A stretch of 64,000 bases of DNA from the IMG/VR virus record IMGVR_UViG_3300009124_000007, positions 1-64,000 of that record, one strand, 5' to 3'. How positions within the stretch are numbered: position 1 is the first letter of the stretch; each line of letters starts with the position of its first letter. Below the pieces are notes generated by a model. The model saw only the letters and a program-made list of their open reading frames with translations. It was not told the DNA's origin and did no database searches. Both the position numbers and the translations under genes were made by a program. Positions 6,327 through 48,258 of this stretch are shown one piece after another. This DNA comes from a virus.

Positions 6327-6668
6327 ATGTCTGAATTGGCACAAGATATTGTGGATAAAGTATTTGCTGGTGACAAGACTGGCACGATCGATGCAGTTGG
6401 TGCTGCAATTCAAGATCGAGCATACGACCTAATCCAGCAAAAGAAAGTCGAAGTCGCACAACAGTGGGGTTTCGAGTTGGACCAAACAGGTCAGGCAGCA
6501 GCAGATGAAGTTTCCGCTTCTCTTCCCGATGGGACTGACGAACCACAAGATTATGAAGTTGATGGTCGAATGCCTCATGATCCTCCCGAGGAATATGAGG
6601 AACCAACAGTAGAAACAACCCCAGAAGAAGAGGACACAGAAAATGAAACTGATCTCGGAACAGATTGA
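6327..6668 (+). CDS. acidic protein, probable prohead core protein
   Basis: Lies between gp20 and gp21; very acidic; RBS GGAG. Confidence 0.6.
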   Translation: MSELAQDIVDKVFAGDKTGTIDAVGAAIQDRAYDLIQQKKVEVAQQWGFELDQTGQAAADEVSASLPDGTDEPQDYEVDGRMPHDPPEEYEEPTVETTPEEEDTENETDLGTD

Positions 6669-7287
6669 AGAAGTAAAATTTATTGCTGAGGAAACCGAAG
6701 GCAAGAAAAATTACTTTATCGAAGGAATCTTTCTTCAGGGAGAGATCAAAAACCGTAATGGGAGAATGTATCCCATGGCAGTTCTTGATCGCGAAGTTGG
6801 GAAGTACACTGAAGGTTTTATTCAGACTGGACGTGCTCTCGGTGAGTTGGGTCATCCCGATGGTCCTACTCTAAATCTAGATCGCGTTTCCCATAAGATC
6901 ATGTCTCTCCAAAAAGAGGGCACGAACTATGTGGGTCGCGCTAAAATTCTTGGTACACCAATGGGAGAAATTGCCAAGAATCTACTTGACGAGGGAATCA
7001 AACTGGGTGTTTCTTCACGCGGTATGGGTTCACTGGTCAAGAAAGAAGGATATCAAATGGTAGCAGATGATTTCATGCTTGCTACCGCTGCTGATATTGT
7101 AGCAGATCCTTCCGCTCCTGATGCATTTGTTGATGGAATTATGGAAGGAAAGGAATGGGTGTGGGATAACGGCATTTTGAAGGAAGCACAGGTTGCACAA
7201 ATCAAACAAGTTATTGATGAAGCAACTCTAATCAACCTTCAGGAGCGCAAAGTTTCCGCGTTCAAGTCATTTCTACAAAGTTTGTAA
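6643..7287 (+). CDS. gp21: prohead protease
   Basis: ALGELGHP, GVSSRGMGS, DIVADPSAPDA. Confidence 0.97.
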   Translation: MKLISEQIEEVKFIAEETEGKKNYFIEGIFLQGEIKNRNGRMYPMAVLDREVGKYTEGFIQTGRALGELGHPDGPTLNLDRVSHKIMSLQKEGTNYVGRAKILGTPMGEIAKNLLDEGIKLGVSSRGMGSLVKKEGYQMVADDFMLATAADIVADPSAPDAFVDGIMEGKEWVWDNGILKEAQVAQIKQVIDEATLINLQERKVSAFKSFLQSL

Positions 7288-7297: not shown

Positions 7298-7337
7298 ATC
7301 TATAGAAAAGCAAATGCCGACTAAAGGAGAAACACAA

Positions 7338-8408
7338 ATGTCTACTACTCTCGATAAAGAGTTTGAAGCGCATATGTCTGAGGAGACCGTCTCTGAGGAA
7401 GCAGCTACTGGTTATGCTGCAGTGAAAAAAGGCGCTAAATCTGGTGAAAAGATTGATCGTTCTGGTGCTAAATATGCCGAAATCGGTGGCACTAAGAATG
7501 ATTCCGAGGAAGGTGCTGCAGGCACTAAGAACCTCGGTGCTGCCGCTTCGGGTGCTGTAAGCGTCGAAGGCGACAAAACTCTGAAGACCAAACCATCCGA
7601 TGCATCCAGTGCAATGCCTGGTGCTCTTTCTGGTAAAATCTTTGACGAGGTAGAGACCGATGAAGAAGAGACAATCACTGAAGCCGAGTACGACTTTGCT
7701 GAAGATGTTGACGCTCTTGTCGCTGGTGAAGACCTCTCCGAAGAATTCAAAGATCGCGCAAAAACAATCTTTGAAGCAGCAGTAACTTCTAAAGTAAATG
7801 CAGAAGTTGCAGCACTAAAAGAAGCATTTGAGTCTGAACTTGAACAGCAAGTTGCAGCACTCAAAGAAGAATTGGCCACACAAGTTGACGATTACCTGTC
7901 GTATGCTGCTCAACAATGGATGACCGAGAATGAACTCGCCATTGAGCACGGTATCAAAAACGACATTGCTGAATCGTTCATGTCTGGTCTAAAAGGTTTG
8001 TTCACAGAACATCACATTGGTGTTCCTGAGGACAAGTTCAACATGCTGGAAGGCATGACTGAACAGCTTGATGAGATGGAAGGAAAACTCAACGAGCAAA
8101 TCGACACCAACGTCCAACTCAATAAGCAGTTGGGTTCTTATATGAAAATGGGTATTGTGAGCGAAGTCGCTGCAGGTCTCGCTGAGACTCAAAAGGAGAA
8201 GCTTGCTTCTCTGGCAGAGGGTGTTGAGTTTGAAAGTGAAGAAGATTTTCGTAAGAAAGTCGAAACTATTAGAGAATCCTACTTTACTCGCCGCGAAGCA
8301 GTAACTGCAGATGCGACCGAGGACGCAGAACCTCTGGTAGAAGAAGTCCAGCACACAAATACAGCGATGAGCAGATATGTGGATGCTCTAGCACGCTGGT
8401 CTAACTAA
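7338..8408 (+). CDS. gp22: prohead scaffold protein
   Basis: LSEEFKDRAKTIFEAAV; acidic coiled coil; AAGGAG before ATG 7338. Confidence 0.93.
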   Translation: MSTTLDKEFEAHMSEETVSEEAATGYAAVKKGAKSGEKIDRSGAKYAEIGGTKNDSEEGAAGTKNLGAAASGAVSVEGDKTLKTKPSDASSAMPGALSGKIFDEVETDEEETITEAEYDFAEDVDALVAGEDLSEEFKDRAKTIFEAAVTSKVNAEVAALKEAFESELEQQVAALKEELATQVDDYLSYAAQQWMTENELAIEHGIKNDIAESFMSGLKGLFTEHHIGVPEDKFNMLEGMTEQLDEMEGKLNEQIDTNVQLNKQLGSYMKMGIVSEVAAGLAETQKEKLASLAEGVEFESEEDFRKKVETIRESYFTRREAVTADATEDAEPLVEEVQHTNTAMSRYVDALARWSN

Positions 8409-8456: not shown

Positions 8457-9854
8457 ATGGCTGATCTCAGACAACTCCAGGAAAAGTGGGCACCCGTTCT
8501 TGACCACGAAGCACTTCCTAAAATTGAAGATGCTCACAAGCGCGGCGTCGTCGCCCAAATCCTGGAAAACCAAGAAAAAGCACTTACAGAAGAGGCACAA
8601 GTTCTCTCTGAGACTGTTCAAACAGTCGGTACAGGCGGTTTCGGTGGCGGTGCCACTGCAACTGGTCCTGTCGCAGGTTTCGACCCCGTTCTGATCTCCC
8701 TGATCAGACGCTCGATGCCCCAACTGATCGCTTACGATATCGCAGGCGTTCAACCCATGACTGGTCCTACTGGACTGATCTTCGCAATGCGTACTGCTTA
8801 TGGCAGCGAGCGCGATGCAACCAACGCCAACTTCCGTGAGGCATTCTTCAACGAGCCTAACGCAGGTTTCTCTGGTGGTCCTGGCACTGGTCTTGCTAAC
8901 TACGATCCTACCGCTTCTGGTAGCGCAGTCAACGATGCTGAAGGCAGCAACCCTGGTCTCCTCAATGACAGCCCTGCTGGCACCTATGAGGTAACTGGCG
9001 ATGCAACTGGCATGAGCACCTCTTCTGCTGAAGCACTGGATGACAGCGCAGCAGGTACTGCTTTCCGCGAAATGGGCTTCTCGATCGAGAAGGTAACCGT
9101 TACCGCTAAGAGCAGAGCACTGAAGGCAGAGTACAGCCTCGAACTGGCTCAAGACCTGAAGGCAGTTCATGGTCTAGATGCAGAGCAGGAACTCAGCAAC
9201 ATCCTTTCGACTGAGATCCTCGCTGAAATCAACCGTGAAGTTGTTCGTACCGTATACAGCAACGCTGTTGCAGGTGCTCAGAACAACACCGCAACTGCTG
9301 GTATCTTCGACCTCGACGTTGACTCCAACGGTCGTTGGTCTGTTGAGAAGTTCAAAGGTCTTCTGTTCCAGATCGAGCGCGATGCTAACGCAATCGGTCA
9401 TGAGACTCGTCGCGGGAAGGGCAACATCATGATCTGCTCTGCAGACGTTGCTAGCGCCCTCTCCATGGCAGGCGTTCTCGACTATGCTCCTGCTCTGAAC
9501 GGCAACAACGGTTTGATCCCTGACGACACCTCCAGCACCCTGGTTGGTACTCTGAACGGTCGCATCAAAGTCTACGTTGACCCCTACTCTGCAAACGTAA
9601 GTGACAAGCACTTCTACGTCATGGGTTATAAGGGTTCCAGCGCATATGACGCAGGTCTCTTCTACTGCCCATACGTTCCTCTGCAGATGGTTCGTGCAAT
9701 CAACCCTAACACCTTCCAGCCCAAGATTGGCTTCAAGACTCGTTACGGTATGGTTTCCAACCCATTCGCACAGGGTCTCACCCAGGGCACTGGTGCTCTC
9801 ACCGCGAACACCAACAAGTACTATCGTCGCGTACAGGTTGCTAACCTCATGTGA
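8457..9854 (+). CDS. gp23: major capsid protein
   Basis: GVQPMTGPTGLIFAMR, KSRALKAEYS, FQPKIGFKTRYG. Confidence 0.99.
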   Translation: MADLRQLQEKWAPVLDHEALPKIEDAHKRGVVAQILENQEKALTEEAQVLSETVQTVGTGGFGGGATATGPVAGFDPVLISLIRRSMPQLIAYDIAGVQPMTGPTGLIFAMRTAYGSERDATNANFREAFFNEPNAGFSGGPGTGLANYDPTASGSAVNDAEGSNPGLLNDSPAGTYEVTGDATGMSTSSAEALDDSAAGTAFREMGFSIEKVTVTAKSRALKAEYSLELAQDLKAVHGLDAEQELSNILSTEILAEINREVVRTVYSNAVAGAQNNTATAGIFDLDVDSNGRWSVEKFKGLLFQIERDANAIGHETRRGKGNIMICSADVASALSMAGVLDYAPALNGNNGLIPDDTSSTLVGTLNGRIKVYVDPYSANVSDKHFYVMGYKGSSAYDAGLFYCPYVPLQMVRAINPNTFQPKIGFKTRYGMVSNPFAQGLTQGTGALTANTNKYYRRVQVANLM

Positions 9855-20818: not shown

Positions 20819-21210
20819 AACACGTACTTTTTACACTCTATCGGTGTGATGTAGAATTGCTCAATGACCGAATGTTTATTGAGAATCTTTTGTATGAAAC
20901 TGCATCTGAATGTGGATCCACATTTCTAAATACAGTATCACACCAATTTGAACCTCAGGGTGTTACTGCGGTCACTTTGCTAGCAGAATCTCATATCTCA
21001 ATTCACACTTGGCCAGAGAATCAGATGGCAGTATGTGACATCTTTACCTGTGGTGATCATACTGATCCTATGAAAGGATTCTGGTTTATGAAAGAGAAAC
21101 TCAAGTCTCTTTGTGCGACTCATCGAGAATACATTCGTCCATTCGATACCCCTGTGCCAGTTGATGAAGCGGTTTCTACCGTGGTCAGTCACGGCACTTC
21201 CGTGCTATAA
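20815..21210 (+). CDS. speD: S-adenosylmethionine decarboxylase proenzyme
   Basis: LAESHISIHTWPE self-cleavage motif; DIFTCG. Confidence 0.92.
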   Translation: MKHVLFTLYRCDVELLNDRMFIENLLYETASECGSTFLNTVSHQFEPQGVTAVTLLAESHISIHTWPENQMAVCDIFTCGDHTDPMKGFWFMKEKLKSLCATHREYIRPFDTPVPVDEAVSTVVSHGTSVL

Positions 21211-39324: not shown

Positions 39325-40299
39325 ATGCCTGCTAATACTCATCTGGAACACCCCGAAGACATGGTTTTCCACGGGGAGTATATAAGTCTGCTCAACTTTT
39401 TCTACAATCTGCCGTCCAATCAGCGTGTATCAGTCAAGTGGGACGGTGCCCCTGCTTTGGTATGGGGTATATGCCCTTCCTCGGGTCGCTTCTTTGTAGG
39501 AACTAAGTCGGTTTTCAATAAGCGCAAGATCAAGATCAACTATAATCACCATGATATTGATATGAATCATGGTGACAATCCTGCTGTAGCATCTATTCTT
39601 CACGTTGCATTTGAGTGTCTTCCTGTTCCTGGCAACGGAGGTTATCTGCAGGGAGACTTCATTGGTTTTGGCGATACCAATACTTTCAAACCCAATACCA
39701 TTGAGTATCGGTTTGACAATACTATCAAGCAATCTATAGTTGTTGCTCTCCATACTCGTTATGAGGGTGCTTTTATCGAACCTCGCGTTCAGTTTGGTAT
39801 TAGTACCAACGATGTTATTTGGTCAGATCGTCGTCAAGATCGCTGCTATCTGATTGACACTGCCCATGCATCTGTGGAATACAAGTCTGTCTTCGGTAAG
39901 ATGTATCGCACTCAACTTGCAAAGTTTTTTGCTCACCGTGCTAAGTTTCCTGCTGCTCGTGCAACCACTCAGTACCTGAAAACTCACGTCAATAAATACA
40001 TCCGCCATGGCATCATGCCCACTGCTACTGAGATGTACGATTCGTTACCTGATAAATATAAGAGTCAAGTGAACGTTGATTTGTTTCGCCTCTTTGAGGT
40101 TATCTATAATCTGAAAAACAAAGTGATGAAACATATCGTTGTTTATAACCAAGCAGAATGTTACATTGATGGTCAACCCACTGATCATGAAGGTTTCGTG
40201 ATTACCAGTTCTGGTCAAACCTATAAAATGGTGAACAGGTTGGAATTTAGCAAAGCGAACTTTACCCTAGATAAAAATTGGACGAATGAAAAAGTTTAG
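39325..40299 (+). CDS. ligase-like covalent nucleotidyltransferase-fold protein
   Basis: KWDG (motif I), LQGDF (III), HEGFVI (IV), YKMV (V). Confidence 0.65.
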   Translation: MPANTHLEHPEDMVFHGEYISLLNFFYNLPSNQRVSVKWDGAPALVWGICPSSGRFFVGTKSVFNKRKIKINYNHHDIDMNHGDNPAVASILHVAFECLPVPGNGGYLQGDFIGFGDTNTFKPNTIEYRFDNTIKQSIVVALHTRYEGAFIEPRVQFGISTNDVIWSDRRQDRCYLIDTAHASVEYKSVFGKMYRTQLAKFFAHRAKFPAARATTQYLKTHVNKYIRHGIMPTATEMYDSLPDKYKSQVNVDLFRLFEVIYNLKNKVMKHIVVYNQAECYIDGQPTDHEGFVITSSGQTYKMVNRLEFSKANFTLDKNWTNEKV

Positions 40300-41458
40300 C
40301 ACCTTCCTTAGCGAGGCGGCAAAATCCACAGCAGGACAGCAAGCAGAGAAACTAGGACTTACCCATGCTGGGTATGGTCGCTGGATGAACAAACGTGGCG
40401 AGGTGACACACATCTCAAAGCAGGGCAAACTGATTCCTATAGCACAACAACCCGAAGTAGCACCAGATGGAGGAGAGGCACCAGCACCCGAAGCGCAACA
40501 ACCCGCTGCGCCAGAAGCACCTGGAGAGGTATCTAAAGGTCCGATTACTATTACTTTTGGAAGATTCAATCCTCCTACTACAGGGCATGAAAAACTCATT
40601 CAGCAGGTAGCATCACAAGCAGGTGATGGTGACTATCGAATCTACCCATCACGCTCCCAGGATCCTAAGAAGAATCCTCTGGATCCAGAAACTAAGGTGC
40701 ATTACATGCGCTTGGCATATCCAGATCATGCTCATGCTATCCACAATGATGATAATATGAAGAGCATCTTTGATGTTCTTGAGGGACTATATGGTGAGGG
40801 GTATAGTGATGTCAATATTGTAGTTGGTGGCGATCGAGTAAAAGAGTTTGATGCTCTCGCTAACAAGTACAACGGCAAACTTTATAACTTTACCAGCATC
40901 AATGTGAAGTCTGCTGGTGATCGTGACCCAGATGCTGATGATGTATCTGGCATGTCTGCATCTAAACTTCGTGCTCATGCAGCAGAGAATGACTACGAAT
41001 CTTTTTCTTCTGGTTTGTCTAAGAACCTAGAGGATAAGCACAAGAAAGAACTGTTTGCACATTTGCGTGGTAATATGAAGATGGAGGAGGCAGAAGATTT
41101 TGCTGAAGCATCTTTTGTTCTTCATGAAGTTGCTCCCAAACTAGATCCTACAAGTTTACGTGAAGCATATTACAACAAAGAAATTTTCAAAGTCGGACAG
41201 ATTGTTGAGAATTTGAACACTGGTGTGATCGGTAAGGTTGTATCACGCGGTGTAAATTACGTTATATACATAGATGAGCATGAGGAAATTTATCGCGGTT
41301 GGTTGAAGGATCTCGTGGAGAGAAACGACATCAAACGCTTTGATTTTACTCCGCTTGGTAAGATTGGTACAGATGAACTAGCACATAAAGTTGCTGCTAT
41401 GACACCTGGACAATTTATTCAGAAGATAAATAAAAGAAACAAAACTGCTGAACGATGA
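40286..41458 (+). CDS. cytidylyltransferase-like (HIGH-family) nucleotidyltransferase
   Basis: TFGRFNPPTTGH, VVGGDR, MSASKLR. Confidence 0.88.
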   Translation: MKKFSTFLSEAAKSTAGQQAEKLGLTHAGYGRWMNKRGEVTHISKQGKLIPIAQQPEVAPDGGEAPAPEAQQPAAPEAPGEVSKGPITITFGRFNPPTTGHEKLIQQVASQAGDGDYRIYPSRSQDPKKNPLDPETKVHYMRLAYPDHAHAIHNDDNMKSIFDVLEGLYGEGYSDVNIVVGGDRVKEFDALANKYNGKLYNFTSINVKSAGDRDPDADDVSGMSASKLRAHAAENDYESFSSGLSKNLEDKHKKELFAHLRGNMKMEEAEDFAEASFVLHEVAPKLDPTSLREAYYNKEIFKVGQIVENLNTGVIGKVVSRGVNYVIYIDEHEEIYRGWLKDLVERNDIKRFDFTPLGKIGTDELAHKVAAMTPGQFIQKINKRNKTAER

Positions 41459-42498
41459 ACTACGAAGCACTGCCTGGAATGGAAGAAGCACTAAGACTAG
41501 TGCAAGAAAAGAAGATGAGCAAAGAAGCTCATAAGAAAGCTGCTAAGGCGGGCAAGCGTTGGCAGGACTCCGATGGTGACGGTAAGTGGTATGAACCTGG
41601 TGAGGATGTAAAAGAAGCAAAGAAGGATGACACATATCTGGAAACGGATATGAAGAAGCGCCAAGCAAATAACGAGAAGGCTCGTAAGGAACTTGCAAAG
41701 GGTCCTCAAATGAAGAACCCACACTTTGAAGAAGTCCAACTAGAAGGTGTCCGTGACACTGACCCAGAGAAGGGCACTGAAGAGAGAAAGGCACGTCTTG
41801 AGAAGAAGCGTGGCATGAAACTCGATGACCATCCTCAGTATAAGAAGGAAGAGGTTGAACTAGACGAGAACCGTGCTGCTGCTCGTGCTGCTGGTGGTTA
41901 TAAGGATGACAGCAAGAAGCAGACCGATCCTTCTAAGGCAGGTTTCACTGGCATCTCTGGTAGCATCAAAGACATCATGCGCCAGAACAAAGAGATCGAA
42001 GCAGCAAATAAAGCAAAGGCGAAGAAGGAAGAAGTAGAACTTGAGGAAGGTAAGAACAAAGAAGGAAAAGAGCAGGGTGTTGACGGTAAAGCATGTTGGA
42101 AAGGTTACCGCTATGCTGGCACCGAGAATGGTAAGGACAAGTGCGTTCCTGCTAACGAGGAACTAGAGACCATGGAAGCAAGTCTGCTTGAGTCTGGTCT
42201 GTTCTCTGATGATGAAGTACGTTACATCATCGGTGAGAAGTTCGACGAACTTGAGGAACTCTACAAAGGTAAGCACGGTCAGTCTGAGAAAGAGTATCAG
42301 GATGGTCGCTCTGATGGCGGCAAGATGGTTTCGGGTGACAGCAAGCACAGTGGTGCTGCATACTCCTCCCGTGCTGTCAAGAATAGTGGTCCTAATCCTG
42401 CAGGTGGATCTAAGAAACCTCAGGGTCAGGGTCGTATGACTTCTGGTGCTCGTGCTGATCTACAGTATCGTAAGGCAAATATGAAGGCAGGTAAGTGA
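41455..42498 (+). CDS. charged low-complexity protein, probable internal head protein
   Basis: Repeated EEV(E/Q)L(D/E)E spacers; late-promoter-like ATAAATA upstream. Confidence 0.65.
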   Translation: MNYEALPGMEEALRLVQEKKMSKEAHKKAAKAGKRWQDSDGDGKWYEPGEDVKEAKKDDTYLETDMKKRQANNEKARKELAKGPQMKNPHFEEVQLEGVRDTDPEKGTEERKARLEKKRGMKLDDHPQYKKEEVELDENRAAARAAGGYKDDSKKQTDPSKAGFTGISGSIKDIMRQNKEIEAANKAKAKKEEVELEEGKNKEGKEQGVDGKACWKGYRYAGTENGKDKCVPANEELETMEASLLESGLFSDDEVRYIIGEKFDELEELYKGKHGQSEKEYQDGRSDGGKMVSGDSKHSGAAYSSRAVKNSGPNPAGGSKKPQGQGRMTSGARADLQYRKANMKAGK

Positions 42499-44675
42499 TG
42501 GCAGACGAAAAGAAAGTCACTGGTAAGCAATCCAAAATCAAAGTCAACCCACGATCTGAAGAAATAATGGAACGCAGAACTAATATCGCAAGACAAATCC
42601 TCGGCAATAAACTCACAGAAATGAGAGTTGCCGATGACTTTGATCACTTTGCAGCAGATCATTTCACTGATGAAGAACTTCTAGAAATCTGCGAAGAAGT
42701 TCTCTCAGAAATGAATACTGAAGATCTGGAAGAGATCTGTGAAGCGATTGAAACTAACCTGGAAGTCATCTCTGAGAGAATGGATCCTAAAGAGATCCAA
42801 CGTCGTAGAGACCAGGCAAAGGATAGACTTGCAACTGGTGCTGCAATGAAGAAAGCAGCAGAAAAGTCTGCTGCAGAGAAATCCTCAACCACATCTTCCG
42901 ATGCAAAACCATCTCGTGCAGAACGTGTCAAGTCTGCTCTCAAGAAAGCTGCTTCGACCACTAAGAATGTCGCTAAGAAAGTCGCTAAGGGTGCTGGAGA
43001 GGTCGCTGGTGCTGCTCGTGCTGGCTACCGCGATGCTGCGGGTTCCTCATCCTCTGGAAATACTGCTGGATCTTCTAGTGGTTCTTCTAGTAGTTCTTCT
43101 TCTTCCTCTAGTGGCGGTGGGTCATCGTCTGGAGGCAGTGGGGAGAACAGAGTCAGACTTCGTGACAGACTGAAAGGTGCTATCAAGAAAGGTGTAGGCA
43201 AACTTGCACGTTCAGTATCTCGTGGTGCTCGCAACGTTGCTCGTAAGATGGGTGAAGAAACTGTACTTGGTTTCTCCGCATTCATTACTGAAGGCAAAGT
43301 CAAGTGTAAGGAGTGTGCTGGCAAAGGTTGCAAGCACTGTGGTGATAAGGGTTACATGGTGACCCATGACTGCTCCAAGAAAGTAGAACATGCTGAGTGG
43401 GGTATTGGTGAGTGTATTGCTGAGCAGCATACACTAGATGAAGAAGGTAACATCACTCACTACGATGTTCAGTTTGAGCATGGTTTGGAAGAGAATGTAT
43501 CTGTAGAGGTTCTCAAGACTCTTGTCTCTGAAATGCATGAACATGCTATCAACTACGACAAGAACCAGGAGGTACTTGGCGAAAAAAAGGATGAAGAGGG
43601 GTTCGCTGGTGAAGCAACCTCTTACAAAGGTGTAGTAATCAGACGTACCAAGTCTGGTTATGAAGCACCTAGATTCAATCTAAAGAGCAATTCTGTCGAT
43701 GGTATCAAGCAGAACATCGATAAAGAGATTGCTAAGGTTGATGAGTCCTACAAACCAGATGCTGCTAACAACTACAACGGTCCTCTCTATGCTCCCTGGA
43801 CTGCTGTGAAGAAAGAAGATGTAGAATATGTTGATGAGGATTCCCGTCGTATGAGCAATAAGCAACATACTGCTCGTGTAAAACAAAACATCAAAACTTT
43901 TGGAAGTAATTTCACTCCACCCAATAACTATGACCCCGATGCTAATCGTGGTAAGGGTGAAGTTGTTACTCGTAAACAGATGGAGAAGAAGCGTCGTAAG
44001 GCACTTCGTCAAGAAGAAACTATCCTAGAGCGTGGTGACTATTGGCATCCAGATCCTGAGAAGGATAAGAAACTGGGTGGTCCTGGTGCTAACCAACGTG
44101 CTCGTGAAGATCGTGGATCTAAATCTTCTTCCTCTTCTTCCTCCTCCTCTTCCGATTCTAAGAAACTGAAGCCAGGTGAGTCCTATATGGACTATGCTAA
44201 GCGTCAGAAGTCGGGTAAGTCTTCTTATGCGTCCAGTGGTAAGACTGCTCGTGAGCGTCTTCAGAAAGCAGGTGCAAAATTTTCGACTCCTGCTAAGAAA
44301 GAAGGACTCCGTGATAAGATCAAGCGTAAGTTGGGTCTGAAAAAAGAAGAGTTTGCCATGCAGGAAGGCAGAGCAGAAGATGCACAAGCATCTCTAGCAA
44401 AAGTCAAAGCACGTCAGAAGGTTCTCGATGCACATGAGAAGAAGACTGGCAGGAAACTTGACATCTCTAAGACACCTGAGCACAAAGCACACAAGAAAGA
44501 ATTCCCTGGTGCTAAACGCACTGGTAAGAAAGTTCCTGGTGCTAAGGAGACTCCTGCTGAAACTCAGCGTAGACAAACCAATCGTCAGGTTTCTAGGGTC
44601 GTCAAGCATGGTTACACTTCTAAAGAAAAGAAAGAAGTTGAATCGATGGCAAAGCATACCTCAGCAAGAGATTGA
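42495..44675 (+). CDS. modular charged protein, probable internal head polyprotein
   Basis: Basic modules, Ser tracts, CxxC-x4-CxxC and acidic spacers. Confidence 0.65.
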   Translation: MMADEKKVTGKQSKIKVNPRSEEIMERRTNIARQILGNKLTEMRVADDFDHFAADHFTDEELLEICEEVLSEMNTEDLEEICEAIETNLEVISERMDPKEIQRRRDQAKDRLATGAAMKKAAEKSAAEKSSTTSSDAKPSRAERVKSALKKAASTTKNVAKKVAKGAGEVAGAARAGYRDAAGSSSSGNTAGSSSGSSSSSSSSSSGGGSSSGGSGENRVRLRDRLKGAIKKGVGKLARSVSRGARNVARKMGEETVLGFSAFITEGKVKCKECAGKGCKHCGDKGYMVTHDCSKKVEHAEWGIGECIAEQHTLDEEGNITHYDVQFEHGLEENVSVEVLKTLVSEMHEHAINYDKNQEVLGEKKDEEGFAGEATSYKGVVIRRTKSGYEAPRFNLKSNSVDGIKQNIDKEIAKVDESYKPDAANNYNGPLYAPWTAVKKEDVEYVDEDSRRMSNKQHTARVKQNIKTFGSNFTPPNNYDPDANRGKGEVVTRKQMEKKRRKALRQEETILERGDYWHPDPEKDKKLGGPGANQRAREDRGSKSSSSSSSSSSDSKKLKPGESYMDYAKRQKSGKSSYASSGKTARERLQKAGAKFSTPAKKEGLRDKIKRKLGLKKEEFAMQEGRAEDAQASLAKVKARQKVLDAHEKKTGRKLDISKTPEHKAHKKEFPGAKRTGKKVPGAKETPAETQRRQTNRQVSRVVKHGYTSKEKKEVESMAKHTSARD
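43040..43140 (+). repeat. Ser/Gly low-complexity tract (TCT-rich)
   Basis: GSSSSGNTAGSSSGSSSSSSSSSSGGG; a similar tract lies near 44117-44159. Confidence 0.7.
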
Positions 44676-44916: not shown

Positions 44917-44947
44917 AGAGGGGCAAAAGCCCCTCTTTTTATAAATA
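44917..44947 (+). terminator. terminator abutting late promoter TATAAATA (44940-44947)
   Basis: AGAGGGGC-AAAA-GCCCCTCT plus T-run, then TATAAATA. Confidence 0.85.
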
Positions 44948-44976: not shown

Positions 44977-45561
44977 ATGTCTTTATACGGAAGAGTTGAC
45001 TCTGTTGCCAACCAGACCGCTGTTGGTCTTACTAGAGGTAATGGCGCAGGGTCTGCAACAGAAACAATTGTTTTCGTTGACGAAACGGAAGCAGGTCTTG
45101 CAGCAAACAAAGAGCGTGGCATCACTGCTCCTGGTTGGTGGGCATATCGTACCTACACTGATGCAGCAGGTAGCACCCGTCATAAAGCAGAGCACCTGAT
45201 GGTTCTCACTAATCCTGAGGCAAACGCACAAGAGACTCTCGCTGACGACACCATCGCAGCAGACGTTCAAGCACTCATCACCATCTCTGCACAACCTACC
45301 GATCAGACCACCGTCAGCGGCGCAGCAACCTTCAGCGTTACTGCTGCTTGTGATAACAGTGGCACGGTTACCTTCCAGTGGCAGAAGAAGACAGCAGGTA
45401 GCACCCGCTATGTCAACGTCTCTGGTGCAACCTCTGCATCTCTGGCACTCACAGGTCAAACCGCATCCGAAACTGGTGACAAGTATCGCGTCAAGTTGAA
45501 TGCTAACGTTGGTGCTCCTGAGGTTATCTCTGATGCTGTAACACTAACATTTGGCACCTGA
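44977..45561 (+). CDS. virion structural protein with C-terminal Ig-like domain
   Basis: ITISAQP...ATFSVTA...TFQWQK...YRVKL...SDAVTLT; late promoter upstream. Confidence 0.8.
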   Translation: MSLYGRVDSVANQTAVGLTRGNGAGSATETIVFVDETEAGLAANKERGITAPGWWAYRTYTDAAGSTRHKAEHLMVLTNPEANAQETLADDTIAADVQALITISAQPTDQTTVSGAATFSVTAACDNSGTVTFQWQKKTAGSTRYVNVSGATSASLALTGQTASETGDKYRVKLNANVGAPEVISDAVTLTFGT

Positions 45562-45567
45562 TAATAT

Positions 45568-45930
45568 ATGAACTTCAGCGAACTGAATGCTAATAACTAC
45601 ATTCTGTTCGCCATCAAACATTATGAAAATCCTCAGAGCGTAACGCGAGAGGATTTTGATGAAGACATGAAACGCTTCAAGTATCTCAAGAGATTGTTCA
45701 AGAGATACTTGAAGTCTCATGATTTGAGAACTCATCTCATCATCAATCATATTATTATTTTGTATAATGTTTTTGGCGAAGCAGCAACACCGTTACTCTT
45801 TTTCAAACTGGAAAGGGAGTATTGGCCTTTGCTAAAAACCTTTCTATTATTTTTGAATAAATATCCTGTAGGCATGTTGCCAGGATTAGATATCGAAGAA
45901 GAAATTCAAGAGGAGCTTGATAAACTATGA
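45568..45930 (+). CDS. conserved T4-like hypothetical protein
   Basis: YENPQ...DMKRFKYLKRL...INHIIILYNVFG. Confidence 0.85.
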   Translation: MNFSELNANNYILFAIKHYENPQSVTREDFDEDMKRFKYLKRLFKRYLKSHDLRTHLIINHIIILYNVFGEAATPLLFFKLEREYWPLLKTFLLFLNKYPVGMLPGLDIEEEIQEELDKL

Positions 45931-46841
45931 TGACCGTAGGTACTGGTGGTTTTAGTGGTTCCGCTGCAGCAACTGGACCTGTAGCAGGGTTCGATCCTGT
46001 CTTGGATTTTCGTAAGAGAATGGCAAACAAGATCAAAGATCATCCTTATGCCCAGCAGTATAAGGAGAAGCGTAAGAAAGCAAAAAAACTGAAAGAGGCA
46101 ATGGATCGCCATGCCCATCAGGTTGCTCATCTCTACCAGTACAAAGTAAACATCCCTGAAGTGGGTGAAACTATTATCTTCGCATCTTCGCAAGCAGAAC
46201 TAACAATGAAGATGCGTCTTCTTATCAACCCACGCTATCGTGGTGATGTAAAGATTGATAGAATCTTCCCTTCTGATGCTGGAAAGTTTTATAACGAAAA
46301 GAGAATGAAAGCATATAAAAATCTCCCTGAGCAGATGGAAGATCCTGCAGACAAAGCAGCAGCTGCTTCGGCAAAGAAAGAGCAAGATGCTGCTAAGAAG
46401 GCAAATGATGCTGCTAAGAAACAAGCAGCAGCACTGAAGAAGCAACAGTCGCAGAAAGAAATTGCCACCAAGATTGCTGCAGAGAAGAAAAAAATTCAAC
46501 TGAAGACTGCAGAGATGCAGAAAACACTGCAAACTAAGATTGCAGGCATGAAAAAAGCAGCAGCATCTGGCGCATCTACTGGTGGTGTTGCCGAAGAGTT
46601 CATGCATGAATCTTCAGGTGGTAACATCGATGCAATCAAAAAGATTGCTGATAGCAATCAACCAGGTAAGATTACATTCTTGAATGGCGAGAGTTTCCAA
46701 CTCCAACCAGCAATTGCACAGAAAATTTTCCAAGCATACGAGACACTAGGTATGCAAAGGAACAAAGCGAAGTTTAGTAATGCTGCAAATGAGAATACAC
46801 AATCATTCCAAAAGATCTTAGATTTTGTGGGGCAGTCATAA
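45927..46841 (+). CDS. hypothetical protein with gp23 N-arm-like N-terminus, probable head protein
   Basis: TVGTGGFSGSAAATGPVAGFDPVL matches gp23 at 21/24 residues; Lys/Ala coiled coil. Confidence 0.75.
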   Translation: MMTVGTGGFSGSAAATGPVAGFDPVLDFRKRMANKIKDHPYAQQYKEKRKKAKKLKEAMDRHAHQVAHLYQYKVNIPEVGETIIFASSQAELTMKMRLLINPRYRGDVKIDRIFPSDAGKFYNEKRMKAYKNLPEQMEDPADKAAAASAKKEQDAAKKANDAAKKQAAALKKQQSQKEIATKIAAEKKKIQLKTAEMQKTLQTKIAGMKKAAASGASTGGVAEEFMHESSGGNIDAIKKIADSNQPGKITFLNGESFQLQPAIAQKIFQAYETLGMQRNKAKFSNAANENTQSFQKILDFVGQS

Positions 46842-47266
46842 TGGCCTTCGGTCTTCAAAAATTAGCAGTTCTTGAATCCAAACTCGATATTTATGAAGAT
46901 CTCTCTAAAGAGATGCTTGACAAACTTGAAAGAGCAGTCGGGACTATCTCTGAGAATAGCAATAAGATTGCTATAATTCTTGAGCGTCATGAGGCACGTC
47001 TAGATGAAGGCGACAAAGCAAACGATGCCATCCTAAAAATGGTGAATGATCACCAGAAGTATGATGAAAGAATGTTCAATAACTTTGCAGAGAAGTTAGA
47101 GACTCTAGAGAAGAAGGTAGACGATAATCAAAAGATGCTCTGGATGGTCACCGTGAGTGCTGGTGCAGTCATCTTTGTATTACAGATGCTACCTCAACTG
47201 GGATTACGGTTGACTCCTACTGGATCGTCTGCTAGCATAGGGACAGCAATCCACCGTTCTGCATGA
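46841..47266 (+). CDS. coiled-coil protein with C-terminal transmembrane segment
   Basis: KLAVLESKL coiled coil; MLWMVTVSAGAVIFVL. Confidence 0.75.
   Translation: MAFGLQKLAVLESKLDIYEDLSKEMLDKLERAVGTISENSNKIAIILERHEARLDEGDKANDAILKMVNDHQKYDERMFNNFAEKLETLEKKVDDNQKMLWMVTVSAGAVIFVLQMLPQLGLRLTPTGSSASIGTAIHRSA
47210..47238 (+). promoter_or_regulatory. sigma70-type promoter for primase
   Basis: TTGACT-17-TAGCAT. Confidence 0.6.
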
Positions 47267-48258
47267 GCACAGTTGATATGAGGTTTGCGGATCTTGTGGG
47301 TCCGAGACTTCAGAAGTTTGTCCGTAAGAAGAGCGGACTATGGAACTTTCGTTGTCCTTATTGTGGGGACTCGCAGAAGTATCAGAACAAAGCACGAGGA
47401 TACTTCTTCCTGAAGAAGAATGACATCGTGTACAAGTGTCACAACTGTGGTGTTGGGAGGTCTTTCGGTGGGTTCCTGAAGGATAATGCTCCTGATCTCC
47501 ATGATGAATATGTCATGGAAAGGTACAAGAAGGGATTGACTGGTAAAGGTAGAAATGTTGCTGACCCAGAGTTCAAAACTACCAAACCTGTCTTCATATC
47601 TAAACCTACAGGTCTTACAAAAATTTCTGACCTAAATATTTCTCACCCAGCAAAGAAATATCTTCTAAGCAGACAGTTACCAGAAGACGCAATGCAGCGT
47701 CTATATTACGTTGATAGATTTCAGCACTGGGTCAACACACAAAAGAAAACTTTTCCAAATTCAAATGCTGATCATCCACGAATCATTATCCCTCTTATCG
47801 ATAGAGATGGAAGTTGGTTTGGGTTTCAGGGCAGGTCCCTAAATCCTAAGGATAAGATGAGATATATTACTATCATGTTAGATGATAGCAAACCAAAGAT
47901 TTATGGATTGGACAAAGTTGATGACAAACGAACAGTCTACGTCACAGAAGGACCCTTTGACTCCTATTTCATTAGGAACTCTGTTGCTATGTGTGGTAGC
48001 GATGTTGACTACCGCTCTCTATCTTATCGAGATAGGGTCTGGGTCTTCGATAATGAACCAAGAAACAAAGAGATCGTTGCAAAGATTGCAAAGACCACCG
48101 AGTCAGGAGATAAGGTAGTCATCTGGCCTTCTAGCATCAAAGAGAAAGATCTAAATGATATGTTCATTGCTGGTCACGACGTTCAGTCTGTGGTAGAATC
48201 TAATACCTTCAGTGGTTTACAAGCACAAGTCAAATTTTCAGAGTGGAAAAAAGTATGA
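47263..48258 (+). CDS. gp61: DNA primase
   Basis: RCPYCGDS, YKCHNCG, TEGPFDS, FDNEPRN. Confidence 0.96.
   Translation: MSTVDMRFADLVGPRLQKFVRKKSGLWNFRCPYCGDSQKYQNKARGYFFLKKNDIVYKCHNCGVGRSFGGFLKDNAPDLHDEYVMERYKKGLTGKGRNVADPEFKTTKPVFISKPTGLTKISDLNISHPAKKYLLSRQLPEDAMQRLYYVDRFQHWVNTQKKTFPNSNADHPRIIIPLIDRDGSWFGFQGRSLNPKDKMRYITIMLDDSKPKIYGLDKVDDKRTVYVTEGPFDSYFIRNSVAMCGSDVDYRSLSYRDRVWVFDNEPRNKEIVAKIAKTTESGDKVVIWPSSIKEKDLNDMFIAGHDVQSVVESNTFSGLQAQVKFSEWKKV

Follow-up and report, generated by a model that had tools for sequence, protein, structure and literature searches.

We report here that a gene of a T4-like cyanomyovirus encodes a protein that begins with a copy of the N-terminus of the phage's own major capsid protein, gp23, in the form that this N-terminus takes in the mature capsid. 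The gene, an open reading frame (ORF) at 45927-46841 (+ strand), was found in positions 1-64,000 of the 76,966-bp IMG/VR record IMGVR_UViG_3300009124_000007, and this whole stretch of 64,000 nucleotides is called the window below. The source of the record is a T4-like cyanomyovirus of the family Kyanoviridae, and the ORF is, judged by its sequence, this phage's member of the cyanomyovirus family known as Syn9 gp190, T4-GC426 or phrog_696. The segment copied corresponds to the N-fist of T4 gp23, the arm that, once the T4 capsid has expanded, holds on to four adjoining subunits. With moderate confidence, we propose that the protein is incorporated into the prohead and docks on the gp23 lattice by its free N-fist copy, thereby tethering a basic segment to the shell.

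The match itself involves the following features of the window.

8457-9854, + strand: gene of the gp23 major capsid protein (Pfam Gp23, PF07068, E 1.3e-148).
8601-8612, + strand: maturation site V-L-S-E of gp23, followed at 8613-8693 by the N-fist equivalent (residues 53-79).
45927-46841, + strand: gp190-family ORF of 304 aa (Syn9 gp190 / T4-GC426 / phrog_696), whose start overlaps the stop of the gp189 gene (ATGA).
45933-46004, + strand: N-fist copy, residues 3-26 of the ORF, matching gp23 at 21/24 positions.

The ORF is open over its 304 codons, with no stops. Its residues 3-26 are identical to gp23 residues 56-79 (8622-8693) at 21 of 24 positions, a match that a previous sequence-only reading of the window had pointed out and that we reproduced, and the underlying DNA is identical at 52 of 72 nucleotides. 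The codons used for the 21 shared residues are the same in 7 cases and synonymous in 14; many are thus synonymous, as that reading had said, the fraction being two thirds rather than the "about half" that it gave. With ORF residues 1-38 as the query, the whole record gave the gp23 site (E 2.4e-11) as the sole match apart from the ORF, which excludes chance or composition as the source of the match.

The V-L-S-E of gp23, already suspected of being a gp21 cleavage site, aligns in register with F-L-T-E65/A66 of T4 gp23 (here and below, the slash marks a known or candidate cut), the conserved GVQPM lying 44 residues away in this phage and 47 residues away in T4. In T4, the N-fist consists of residues 66-91 of mature gp23 (PMC7136217) and contacts two subunits of its own capsomer as well as two of the neighbouring capsomer (PMC9958956; PMC7136217). 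N-fists and I-domain linkers form the Soc sites, the N-fist being on the outer surface after expansion (PMC9958956). The arm is missing from mature gp24 and is disordered where it faces the portal (PMC9958956; PMC7136217). By position and length, the cyanophage gp23 segment that runs from the cleavage site to DPVL is the equivalent of the T4 N-fist.

The copy is a conserved trait of the gp190 family. It was found at the extreme N-terminus of 96 of 99 members (GPxAGxDP within the first 45 residues), and 13 of the 35 nearly invariant columns of the family alignment fall within residues 5-28. When the gp23 N-terminus was used as a query on 22 named cyanophage genomes, 20 of them gave the gp190 start, and nothing else, as a second match. 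Moreover, in 23 phages, the copy and the gp23 of the same phage have 366 identical residues in all, of which 212 are encoded by different codons. These codon comparisons, together with the 14 of 21 found in the window, exclude a recent duplication and show purifying selection at the protein level, in line with what the sequence-only reading had claimed. A recent gene conversion was also considered as the source of the copy and is ruled out by the same comparisons.

Also, about two thirds of the family members have their copy in register with the N-terminus of mature gp23. The leaders that precede the core motif (MM, MTVM, MTIA, MTMM, M-I-N-E-SPTM, M-N-V-N-E-SPTM, M-N-E-E-MM and similar ones) mostly leave 3-4 residues before the core, either after Met removal or after a cut behind [I/V/M]-x-E. 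Mature gp23 likewise has TLQ, TLA, TVQ or APTM before the core. In the window, the protein (MM + TVGTGG) is one residue shorter than its own mature gp23 (TVQ + TVGTGG). In S-SSM4, ACG-2014d and S-H38, the similarity spans the cleavage site, with [I/V]-N-E/[S/D] facing L-[T/S]-E/A, and none of these three has an alternative start codon that would remove the [I/V]-N-E leader. Since the leaders keep the register of mature gp23, the thing imitated is, on these alignments, the mature, free N-terminus of gp23.

The sequence-only reading had suggested checking whether the copy co-varies with the gp23 of the same phage, and this proved to be so in part. In the 23 phages, the mean alignment score of the copy was 87.0 against the phage's own gp23 and 76.4 against the gp23 of other phages, and 0 of 20,000 permutations reached the observed value, in a statistic that ignores phylogeny. 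Several convincing lineage-specific matches between copy and gp23 illustrate this: APTNS in S-H38, [A/S]PTM in S-SSM4 and ACG-2014d, T[I/L]ATAG…G[G/A]D in QB2 and WH25-B, and TTG[Y/F]TG in Syn9, S-MbCM6, S-H35, S-RIM12 and P-SSM3. Nine of the 23 phages do not track in this way (see below). These comparisons suggest that the copy partly tracks the phage's own gp23.

By searching other T4-type genomes with each phage's own gp23 N-terminus, we found the same module on further proteins. Gene 108 of S-SM2 (SSM2_108; L080:2877-3305, + strand) encodes a hypothetical protein of 142 aa and lies between g16 and g17. It begins with MKTLKQFLKE, directly followed by an in-register copy of the phage's own gp23 N-fist (71% identical, E 7e-10), and its remainder is unrelated to gp190. 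In RB55, an Enterobacteria phage of the species T4, gene 61.1 (L079:2431-2595, - strand) encodes 54 aa directly 5' of the primase gene 61. Its product begins with MKTFKEFIKE, continues with an ungapped copy of gp23 residues 66-94 and ends with a Lys-rich tail. A leader of this kind (MKT[FY].EFI.E), which is the T4 capsid-targeting sequence, was found on three ORFs only in the RB55 genome, that is 61.1 and two ORFs of 193 and 100 aa starting with MKTYQEFIAE, which we take to be IPIII and IPII. In T4, the capsid-targeting leader is removed by gp21. When 61.1 was compared with all PDB sequences, it matched only T4 gp23 (residues 3-39 against 58-94, ungapped, E 0.004). The T4 capsid-targeting sequence encapsidates internal proteins into the scaffolding core (PMC3012670).

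The 61.1 family is present in 1398 phage records; its homologue in Klebsiella phage Roth01 is annotated as "major capsid protein". In 16 of 16 T4-like IMG/VR genomes, the gp23 query had the 61.1 locus as its second match, and always right after [hydrophobic]-x-E. Some T4-like genomes have the copy at the C-terminal end of a protein of ~155 residues, after [V/I]-x-E and with a basic tail following, the N-terminal domain of these longer 61.1 relatives being of ~105 residues. The recurring unit is thus a protease site or initiator Met, an N-fist copy and a basic tail, on otherwise unrelated carriers, and it is encoded beside the primase gene in both T4 and cyanophages. The likeness of the gp190 N-terminal module to the mature 61.1 peptides was weak by hhalign (E 0.01, probability 4%, 20 columns in register). 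Self-searches at E up to 1 gave no second N-fist copy in S-PM2 or in the Sinorhizobium phage phiM7, so the module is widespread but not universal. We found no paper describing the N-fist copy of gp190 or of T4 61.1, in a literature search whose coverage of subscription journals was limited, and a prior description is possible. The presence of the module after a capsid-targeting sequence and a protease site in S-SM2 gene 108 and T4 61.1 favours entry into the prohead and processing by gp21.

The family also has a member among detected virion proteins. Sullivan 2010 give T4-GC426 a peptide count of 17 for purified virions of S-SM1 and class it as "Structural protein" (PMC3037559 Table S8); its entry carries YES in the column "Existence of Proteomic Data" (PMC3037559). 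The same table has T4-GC426 absent from S-PM2 and T4 (PMC3037559 Table S8). This indicates that the gp190 family is one of virion proteins, the evidence coming from the S-SM1 homologue and not from the protein of the window. Homologues without the motif and a protein absent from virions were what the sequence-only reading thought would speak against its proposal of docking into the capsid; instead, the motif is present in 96 of 99 members and the homologue was found in S-SM1 virions.

The same reading had described the ORF as an orphan, which it is not. It matches phrog_696 with E 1.9e-98, residues 1-302 aligning on profile positions 7-260 of 263. By tblastn, we found relatives in 283 phage records, all of them from cyanophages, and a large protein database contains 199 clusters of the family. 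The gene order gp188-gp189-gp190-gp191-gp61 is alike in the window and in 23 named phages. The Syn9 gp190 family has no assigned function, and RefSeq and PHROGs label gp190 and phrog_696 as "major head protein". This label is wrong, because the ORF does not match the Pfam Gp23 profile (PF07068) at E up to 1, the similarity to gp23 is limited to ~26 residues and the model described below shows no recognisable capsid fold. The mislabel probably arose from the short N-terminal similarity to gp23. One genome record files its gp190 homologue under the gp23 cluster T4-GC131. Two side observations concern public records. The gp23 of ACG-2014 phages is labelled "head vertex precursor". In Cyanophage P-RSM1 (NC_021071), the gp190 homologue (L022:~690-1240, + strand) is split by a frameshift, so that the conserved core is read in a different frame from the basic start with its N-fist copy, and RefSeq annotates no gene there.

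The structure of the ORF product was modelled with AlphaFold2 (AF2) on 99 homologues, giving a mean predicted local distance difference test (pLDDT) score of 73.9. Its parts are the following.

Residues 1-22: without secondary structure in the AF2 model, pLDDT <50 for residues 1-14.
46005-46097, + strand: basic helical segment, residues 27-57 (AF2 helical 24-63), net charge +9, ending in L-K-E (55-57, 46089-46097).
46098-46331, + strand: conserved core of the family, residues 58-135 (small alpha/beta domain at 70-131 in AF2).
46332-46571, + strand: Lys/Ala-rich long helix, residues 136-215 (AF2 helix 141-213), net charge +10.
46572-46622, + strand: Gly/Ser/Ala linker, residues 216-232, with EEFMHE (223-228).
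46623-46838, + strand: small C-terminal domain, residues 233-304 (AF2 233-301), pLDDT 83-89.

In the conserved core, the strands at 70-76, 80-86 and 109-112 have pLDDT values of 84-89, and Q71, Y72, P77, G80 and T82 are invariant. The long helix and the C-terminal domain are found in the long subfamily only (S-ShM2, S-RIM14, S-SSM4, ACG-2014d), most gp190 members being of ~175-190 residues. The S-RIM14 homologue is 69.5% identical. The model agrees with the Lys/Ala coiled coil and the C-terminal domain after FMHE proposed earlier, with a helix at 141-213 and a domain at 233-301 after EEFMHE.

Searches with the protein or its model returned little. Pfam gave only a sub-threshold match to DUF6985 for the whole protein, and a hidden Markov model made from the family alignment found nothing below E 0.1 among all PDB sequences. 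Foldseek against the PDB gave no match at E <=0.001, and VIA-align against 48,161 chains gave only generic coiled-coil matches to the long helix (Z <=6.9) and no match to a capsid protein. As for decoration-protein families, there was no Pfam or PHROG match, and nothing rose above background in the fold searches (Foldseek, VIA-align). In BFVD and the ESM Atlas we found only uncharacterised viral proteins, the two folded domains being searched within the whole model. The C-terminal domain (233-304, ~72 residues) recurs in such uncharacterised viral proteins, of 106-347 aa, with template modelling scores by query of 0.91-0.92 in the Atlas and ~70 aligned residues at a root-mean-square deviation of 1.5-2.6 in BFVD. 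One cluster with this domain has the winged-helix family WHD_ORC1 in 15% of its members.

Two motifs of the protein resemble gp21 cleavage sites. Most members have [L/I/V/M]-x-E 15 residues before the conserved QYKV (L-G-E/S, V-H-E/S, V-K-E/S), and the version in the window is L-K-E/A (residues 55-57). Such a linker motif was found in 74 of 85 homologues, with ~31 expected from composition. The second site in the window protein is M-H-E/S (residues 226-228). Both L-K-E and M-H-E are candidate gp21 sites, given a specificity of gp21 that is assumed from T4.

These observations can be brought together in a mechanism. The gp190-family protein would be built into the prohead and would expose a free N-terminus that keeps the register of mature gp23. 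This end would follow the initiator Met directly or, in some relatives, arise by loss of the short [I/V]-N-E leader. This N-terminus would then occupy the acceptor surface of gp23 that authentic N-fists use. We suppose that the likeliest docking sites would be those without an N-fist donor, on the hexamers beside the vertices and the portal. Docking would tether the basic and probably DNA-binding segment (residues 27-57, +9) to the shell, either as part of the whole protein or as a released peptide. Indeed, should gp21 cut after L-K-E, only a peptide of ~56 residues, made of the N-fist copy and a basic tail, would remain tethered, and this gp190 peptide would be the counterpart of mature T4 gp61.1 (44 residues).

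Three genes of head morphogenesis, gp21, gp22 and gp23, are encoded within the window. The first two of them and the features surrounding the ORF are as follows.

6643-7287, + strand: gp21 prohead protease (Peptidase_S77, E 4.8e-33), presumed to cut after [L/I/V]-x-E.
7314-8408: gp22 scaffold (T4_CASP, E 4e-82).
44918-44947, + strand: GC-rich hairpin and T-run, then a T4-type late promoter, TATAAATA, at 44940-44947.
1629, 4616, 7290, 26252, 35699, 52106 and 63311, + strand: the other TATAAATA motifs found by scanning the window.
44977-45561, + strand: gp188-type "head protein" (phrog_613, E 9e-83), first gene of the late operon.
45568-45930, + strand: gp189 homologue (phrog_407, function unknown).
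46841-47266, + strand: gp191 homologue (phrog_451), with a coiled coil and a C-terminal hydrophobic segment, between gp190 and the primase gene.
47263-48258, + strand: gp61 primase, the conserved 3' neighbour of the gp190 operon.

The late promoter TATAAATA at 44940-44947 is located 30 nt 5' of the gp188 start, after the terminator-like hairpin. The motif is present in 8 copies in the window, all on the + strand, compared to 1.6 expected, and one of them lies 17 nt 5' of gp22; the eight are presumably T4-type late promoters. The gp188, gp189, gp190 and gp191 genes have adjacent ends that abut or overlap, and the gp188-type protein (44977-45561) shows weak matches to Hoc-like Ig decoration families. 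From this arrangement, the gp190-family ORF is predicted to be expressed late, in one operon with the Hoc-like head protein gp188.

Further 5' of this operon, two large ORFs (347 and 726 aa) extend over 41455-44675 (+ strand), near a transferase ORF at 40286-41458 (+ strand). The latter encodes a cytidylyltransferase-like protein of 390 aa (PF01467, E 4.5e-4, just under the Pfam cut-off) that begins with MKKFSTFLSE/A, and a pattern scan found it to be the sole long ORF of the window with a T4-type capsid-targeting start. Apart from it, the scan matched only a frame of 46 aa at 21070, and less closely (MKGFWFMKE). The cytidylyltransferase family T4-GC190 was detected in S-SM1 virions (Sullivan 2010).

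Several points weigh against docking on the gp23 lattice. The literature gave no cryo-electron microscopy (cryo-EM) structure of a T4-like cyanophage capsid. A protein that is whole and internal would have to extend its N-terminus to a site that T4 has on its outer surface. The window protein, which starts with MMTVG, does not carry the capsid-targeting leader MK..(F/Y)..F(I/L).E in a pattern scan, and the specificity of cyanophage gp21 is itself taken over from T4. For T4, neither a PDB entry nor a published capsid model includes a gp61.1 chain. In addition, 10 T4-like genomes gave no own-versus-other signal (70.1 versus 69.6), in a test that is without power given that their N-fists are near-identical. 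Among the cyanophages, the copy of 9 of the 23 phages (Syn30, ACG-2014a, ACG-2014b, MbCM1, P-RSM1, S-CAM22, S-SM1, S-CAM8 and S-RIM2) has GTGGFSG and is nearer to the gp23 of other phages than to their own (TTGYTG). Finally, Syn9 gp190 was undetected in Syn9 virions (PMC3037559 Table S8).

A serious but minority alternative is that the copy works as a targeting or processing signal only. By imitating the maturation region of gp23, it would recruit the protein to the scaffold/protease core and to handling by gp21, with no role in the lattice, and the cargo would be the basic segment and/or the folded domains, that is internal head proteins perhaps ejected with the DNA. This would explain why T4 61.1 and S-SM2 gene 108 join a capsid-targeting sequence and a gp21 site to the copy, and it fits the resemblance of the end of the T4 targeting sequence (EFIAE/A) to gp23 (SFLTE/A) as well as the excess of [L/I/V/M]-x-E in the linker (74/85 versus ~31 expected). 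Neighbour genes, too, encode non-structural proteins carried in virions (T4-GC190 in virions, and the targeting-like start of ORF 40286), and DarA and Hdf of phage P1 set a precedent for internal proteins that are bound to the capsid, bind DNA and are ejected. However, most gp190 proteins, including that of the window, have no residues before the copy and thus no cleavage context there. The copy is nonetheless among the most conserved parts of the family and keeps the mature gp23 register, and it would be redundant for targeting wherever a targeting sequence is present. We also consider it improbable that gp190 is an external, Soc-like decoration or cement protein, binding the outside of the expanded capsid via the copy and never entering the prohead. 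The T4 N-fist is indeed on the outer surface after expansion, where it helps to form Soc sites, the late operon is shared with a Hoc-like Ig-domain head protein, and a homologue is found in virions. Yet the in-register leaders with gp21 sites and the targeting versions of T4 and S-SM2 imply that the protease within the prohead has access to them, the strongly basic helices suit DNA contact better than an outer surface, and neither Foldseek nor VIA-align revealed a likeness to known decoration folds.

The remaining explanations are weaker. Capsid proteins are known triggers of bacterial defences, and the mimicry is under selection, as would be expected if the copy were a decoy that titrates a host factor recognising the N-terminal region of gp23, be it a capsid-sensing defence or a chaperone. 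We hold this for very improbable: a decoy would have no need of a strict N-terminal register, of a prohead-targeting sequence or of a place in virions, and late expression comes too late for most counter-defence roles. Otherwise, we found nothing in favour of the roles of size regulator, assembly nucleator or defence decoy that the sequence-only reading had listed, no search aimed at defence having been made. A true shell protein, either a second major head protein, as the RefSeq and PHROGs name would have it, or the missing gp24-type vertex protein of cyanomyoviruses, is hardly credible given the absence of a Pfam Gp23 match at E up to 1, the restriction of gp23 similarity to ~26 residues, an AF2 model made of helices and two small domains with no apparent HK97-like fold, and short members of only ~175-190 residues. 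Finally, Gly, Thr and Ala abound in the segment, which BLAST masks in part, and many tblastn matches start at residue 18, all of which could be expected of a chance low-complexity match or of a functionless product of recent duplication or gene conversion. This last explanation is refuted by the data: each of ~40 genomes has this one second match and no other, every time in the syntenic gene, codon choice at synonymous sites is mostly random, and the copy is kept across 99 clusters.

Docking of a prohead-incorporated protein by its N-fist copy is thus the reading that we prefer. A more specific version can be put forward tentatively, and we think it rather unlikely in its full form: gp190, gp61.1 and S-SM2 gene 108 would all be surrogate N-fists, trimmed by gp21 to the N-terminus of mature gp23, that fill the donor-less acceptor sites on expansion, at ~55-60 per head. 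Such surrogates would be a previously unrecognised capsid component even in T4, and they would bear on the stabilisation of vertices in the cyanomyoviruses that have no gp24. More generally, the assembly of the T4 head is among the best-studied pathways, and yet T4 61.1 and abundant marine cyanomyoviruses encode proteins that copy the N-fist at its mature N-terminus. If docking is true, HK97-type shells could be fitted with cargo or a stabilising peptide by a new route, and the engineering of T4 for display and delivery would gain a portable "capsid-docking tag". For the long-standing question of which component takes the place of gp24 at the vertices of cyanomyoviruses, gp190 is a concrete candidate. 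In any case, the misannotations of phrog_696/gp190 as "major head protein" and of some 61.1 homologues as "major capsid protein" can be corrected.

Compared with known systems, the likeness of the ORF to Soc and Hoc of T4 is that these accessory head proteins, too, have their genes outside the head gene cluster, the neighbouring gp188 being Hoc-like. In contrast, no similarity to the ORF in sequence or fold was found for Soc and Hoc, and they bind the outside of the capsid after expansion and do not undergo gp21 processing. DarA-Hdf of P1, of which 55 pairs lie on the inside of the capsid where pentons meet hexons and also bind DNA (PMC12810830), provides a functional analogy only, as accessory head proteins that bind both shell and DNA by basic surfaces and affect head stability. 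There is no sequence relation, and DarA-Hdf is attached by helical bundles and not by a copy of a capsid arm. The internal proteins IPI-III of T4 enter the prohead core, are cut by gp21 after [L/I]-x-E and are kept in the head. Their leader type is shared with T4 61.1 and S-SM2 gene 108, whereas the window protein lacks their targeting sequence, and IPI-III are not known to copy the N-fist.

The copy agrees with the N-fist of mature T4 gp23 in its length, in its free N-terminus and in where it stands from the cleavage site and from the conserved block RR..P.LIA.D..GVQPM, the difference being that the window copy stands on a separate protein with no apparent HK97 fold. The ORF resembles the Syn9 gp190 / T4-GC426 / phrog_696 family by full-length match, synteny, the N-terminal copy and the QYKV..P..G.T core, and differs from most of it as a long subtype, with an added Lys/Ala helix and C-terminal domain. 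Finally, the uncharacterised gp61.1 of T4 differs from gp190 in having a targeting sequence in front and no folded domain. Like gp190, it joins a copy of the N-fist from the phage's own gp23 to a basic tail and is encoded beside the primase gene 61, and its copy starts exactly where a cut by gp21 would create an N-terminus.

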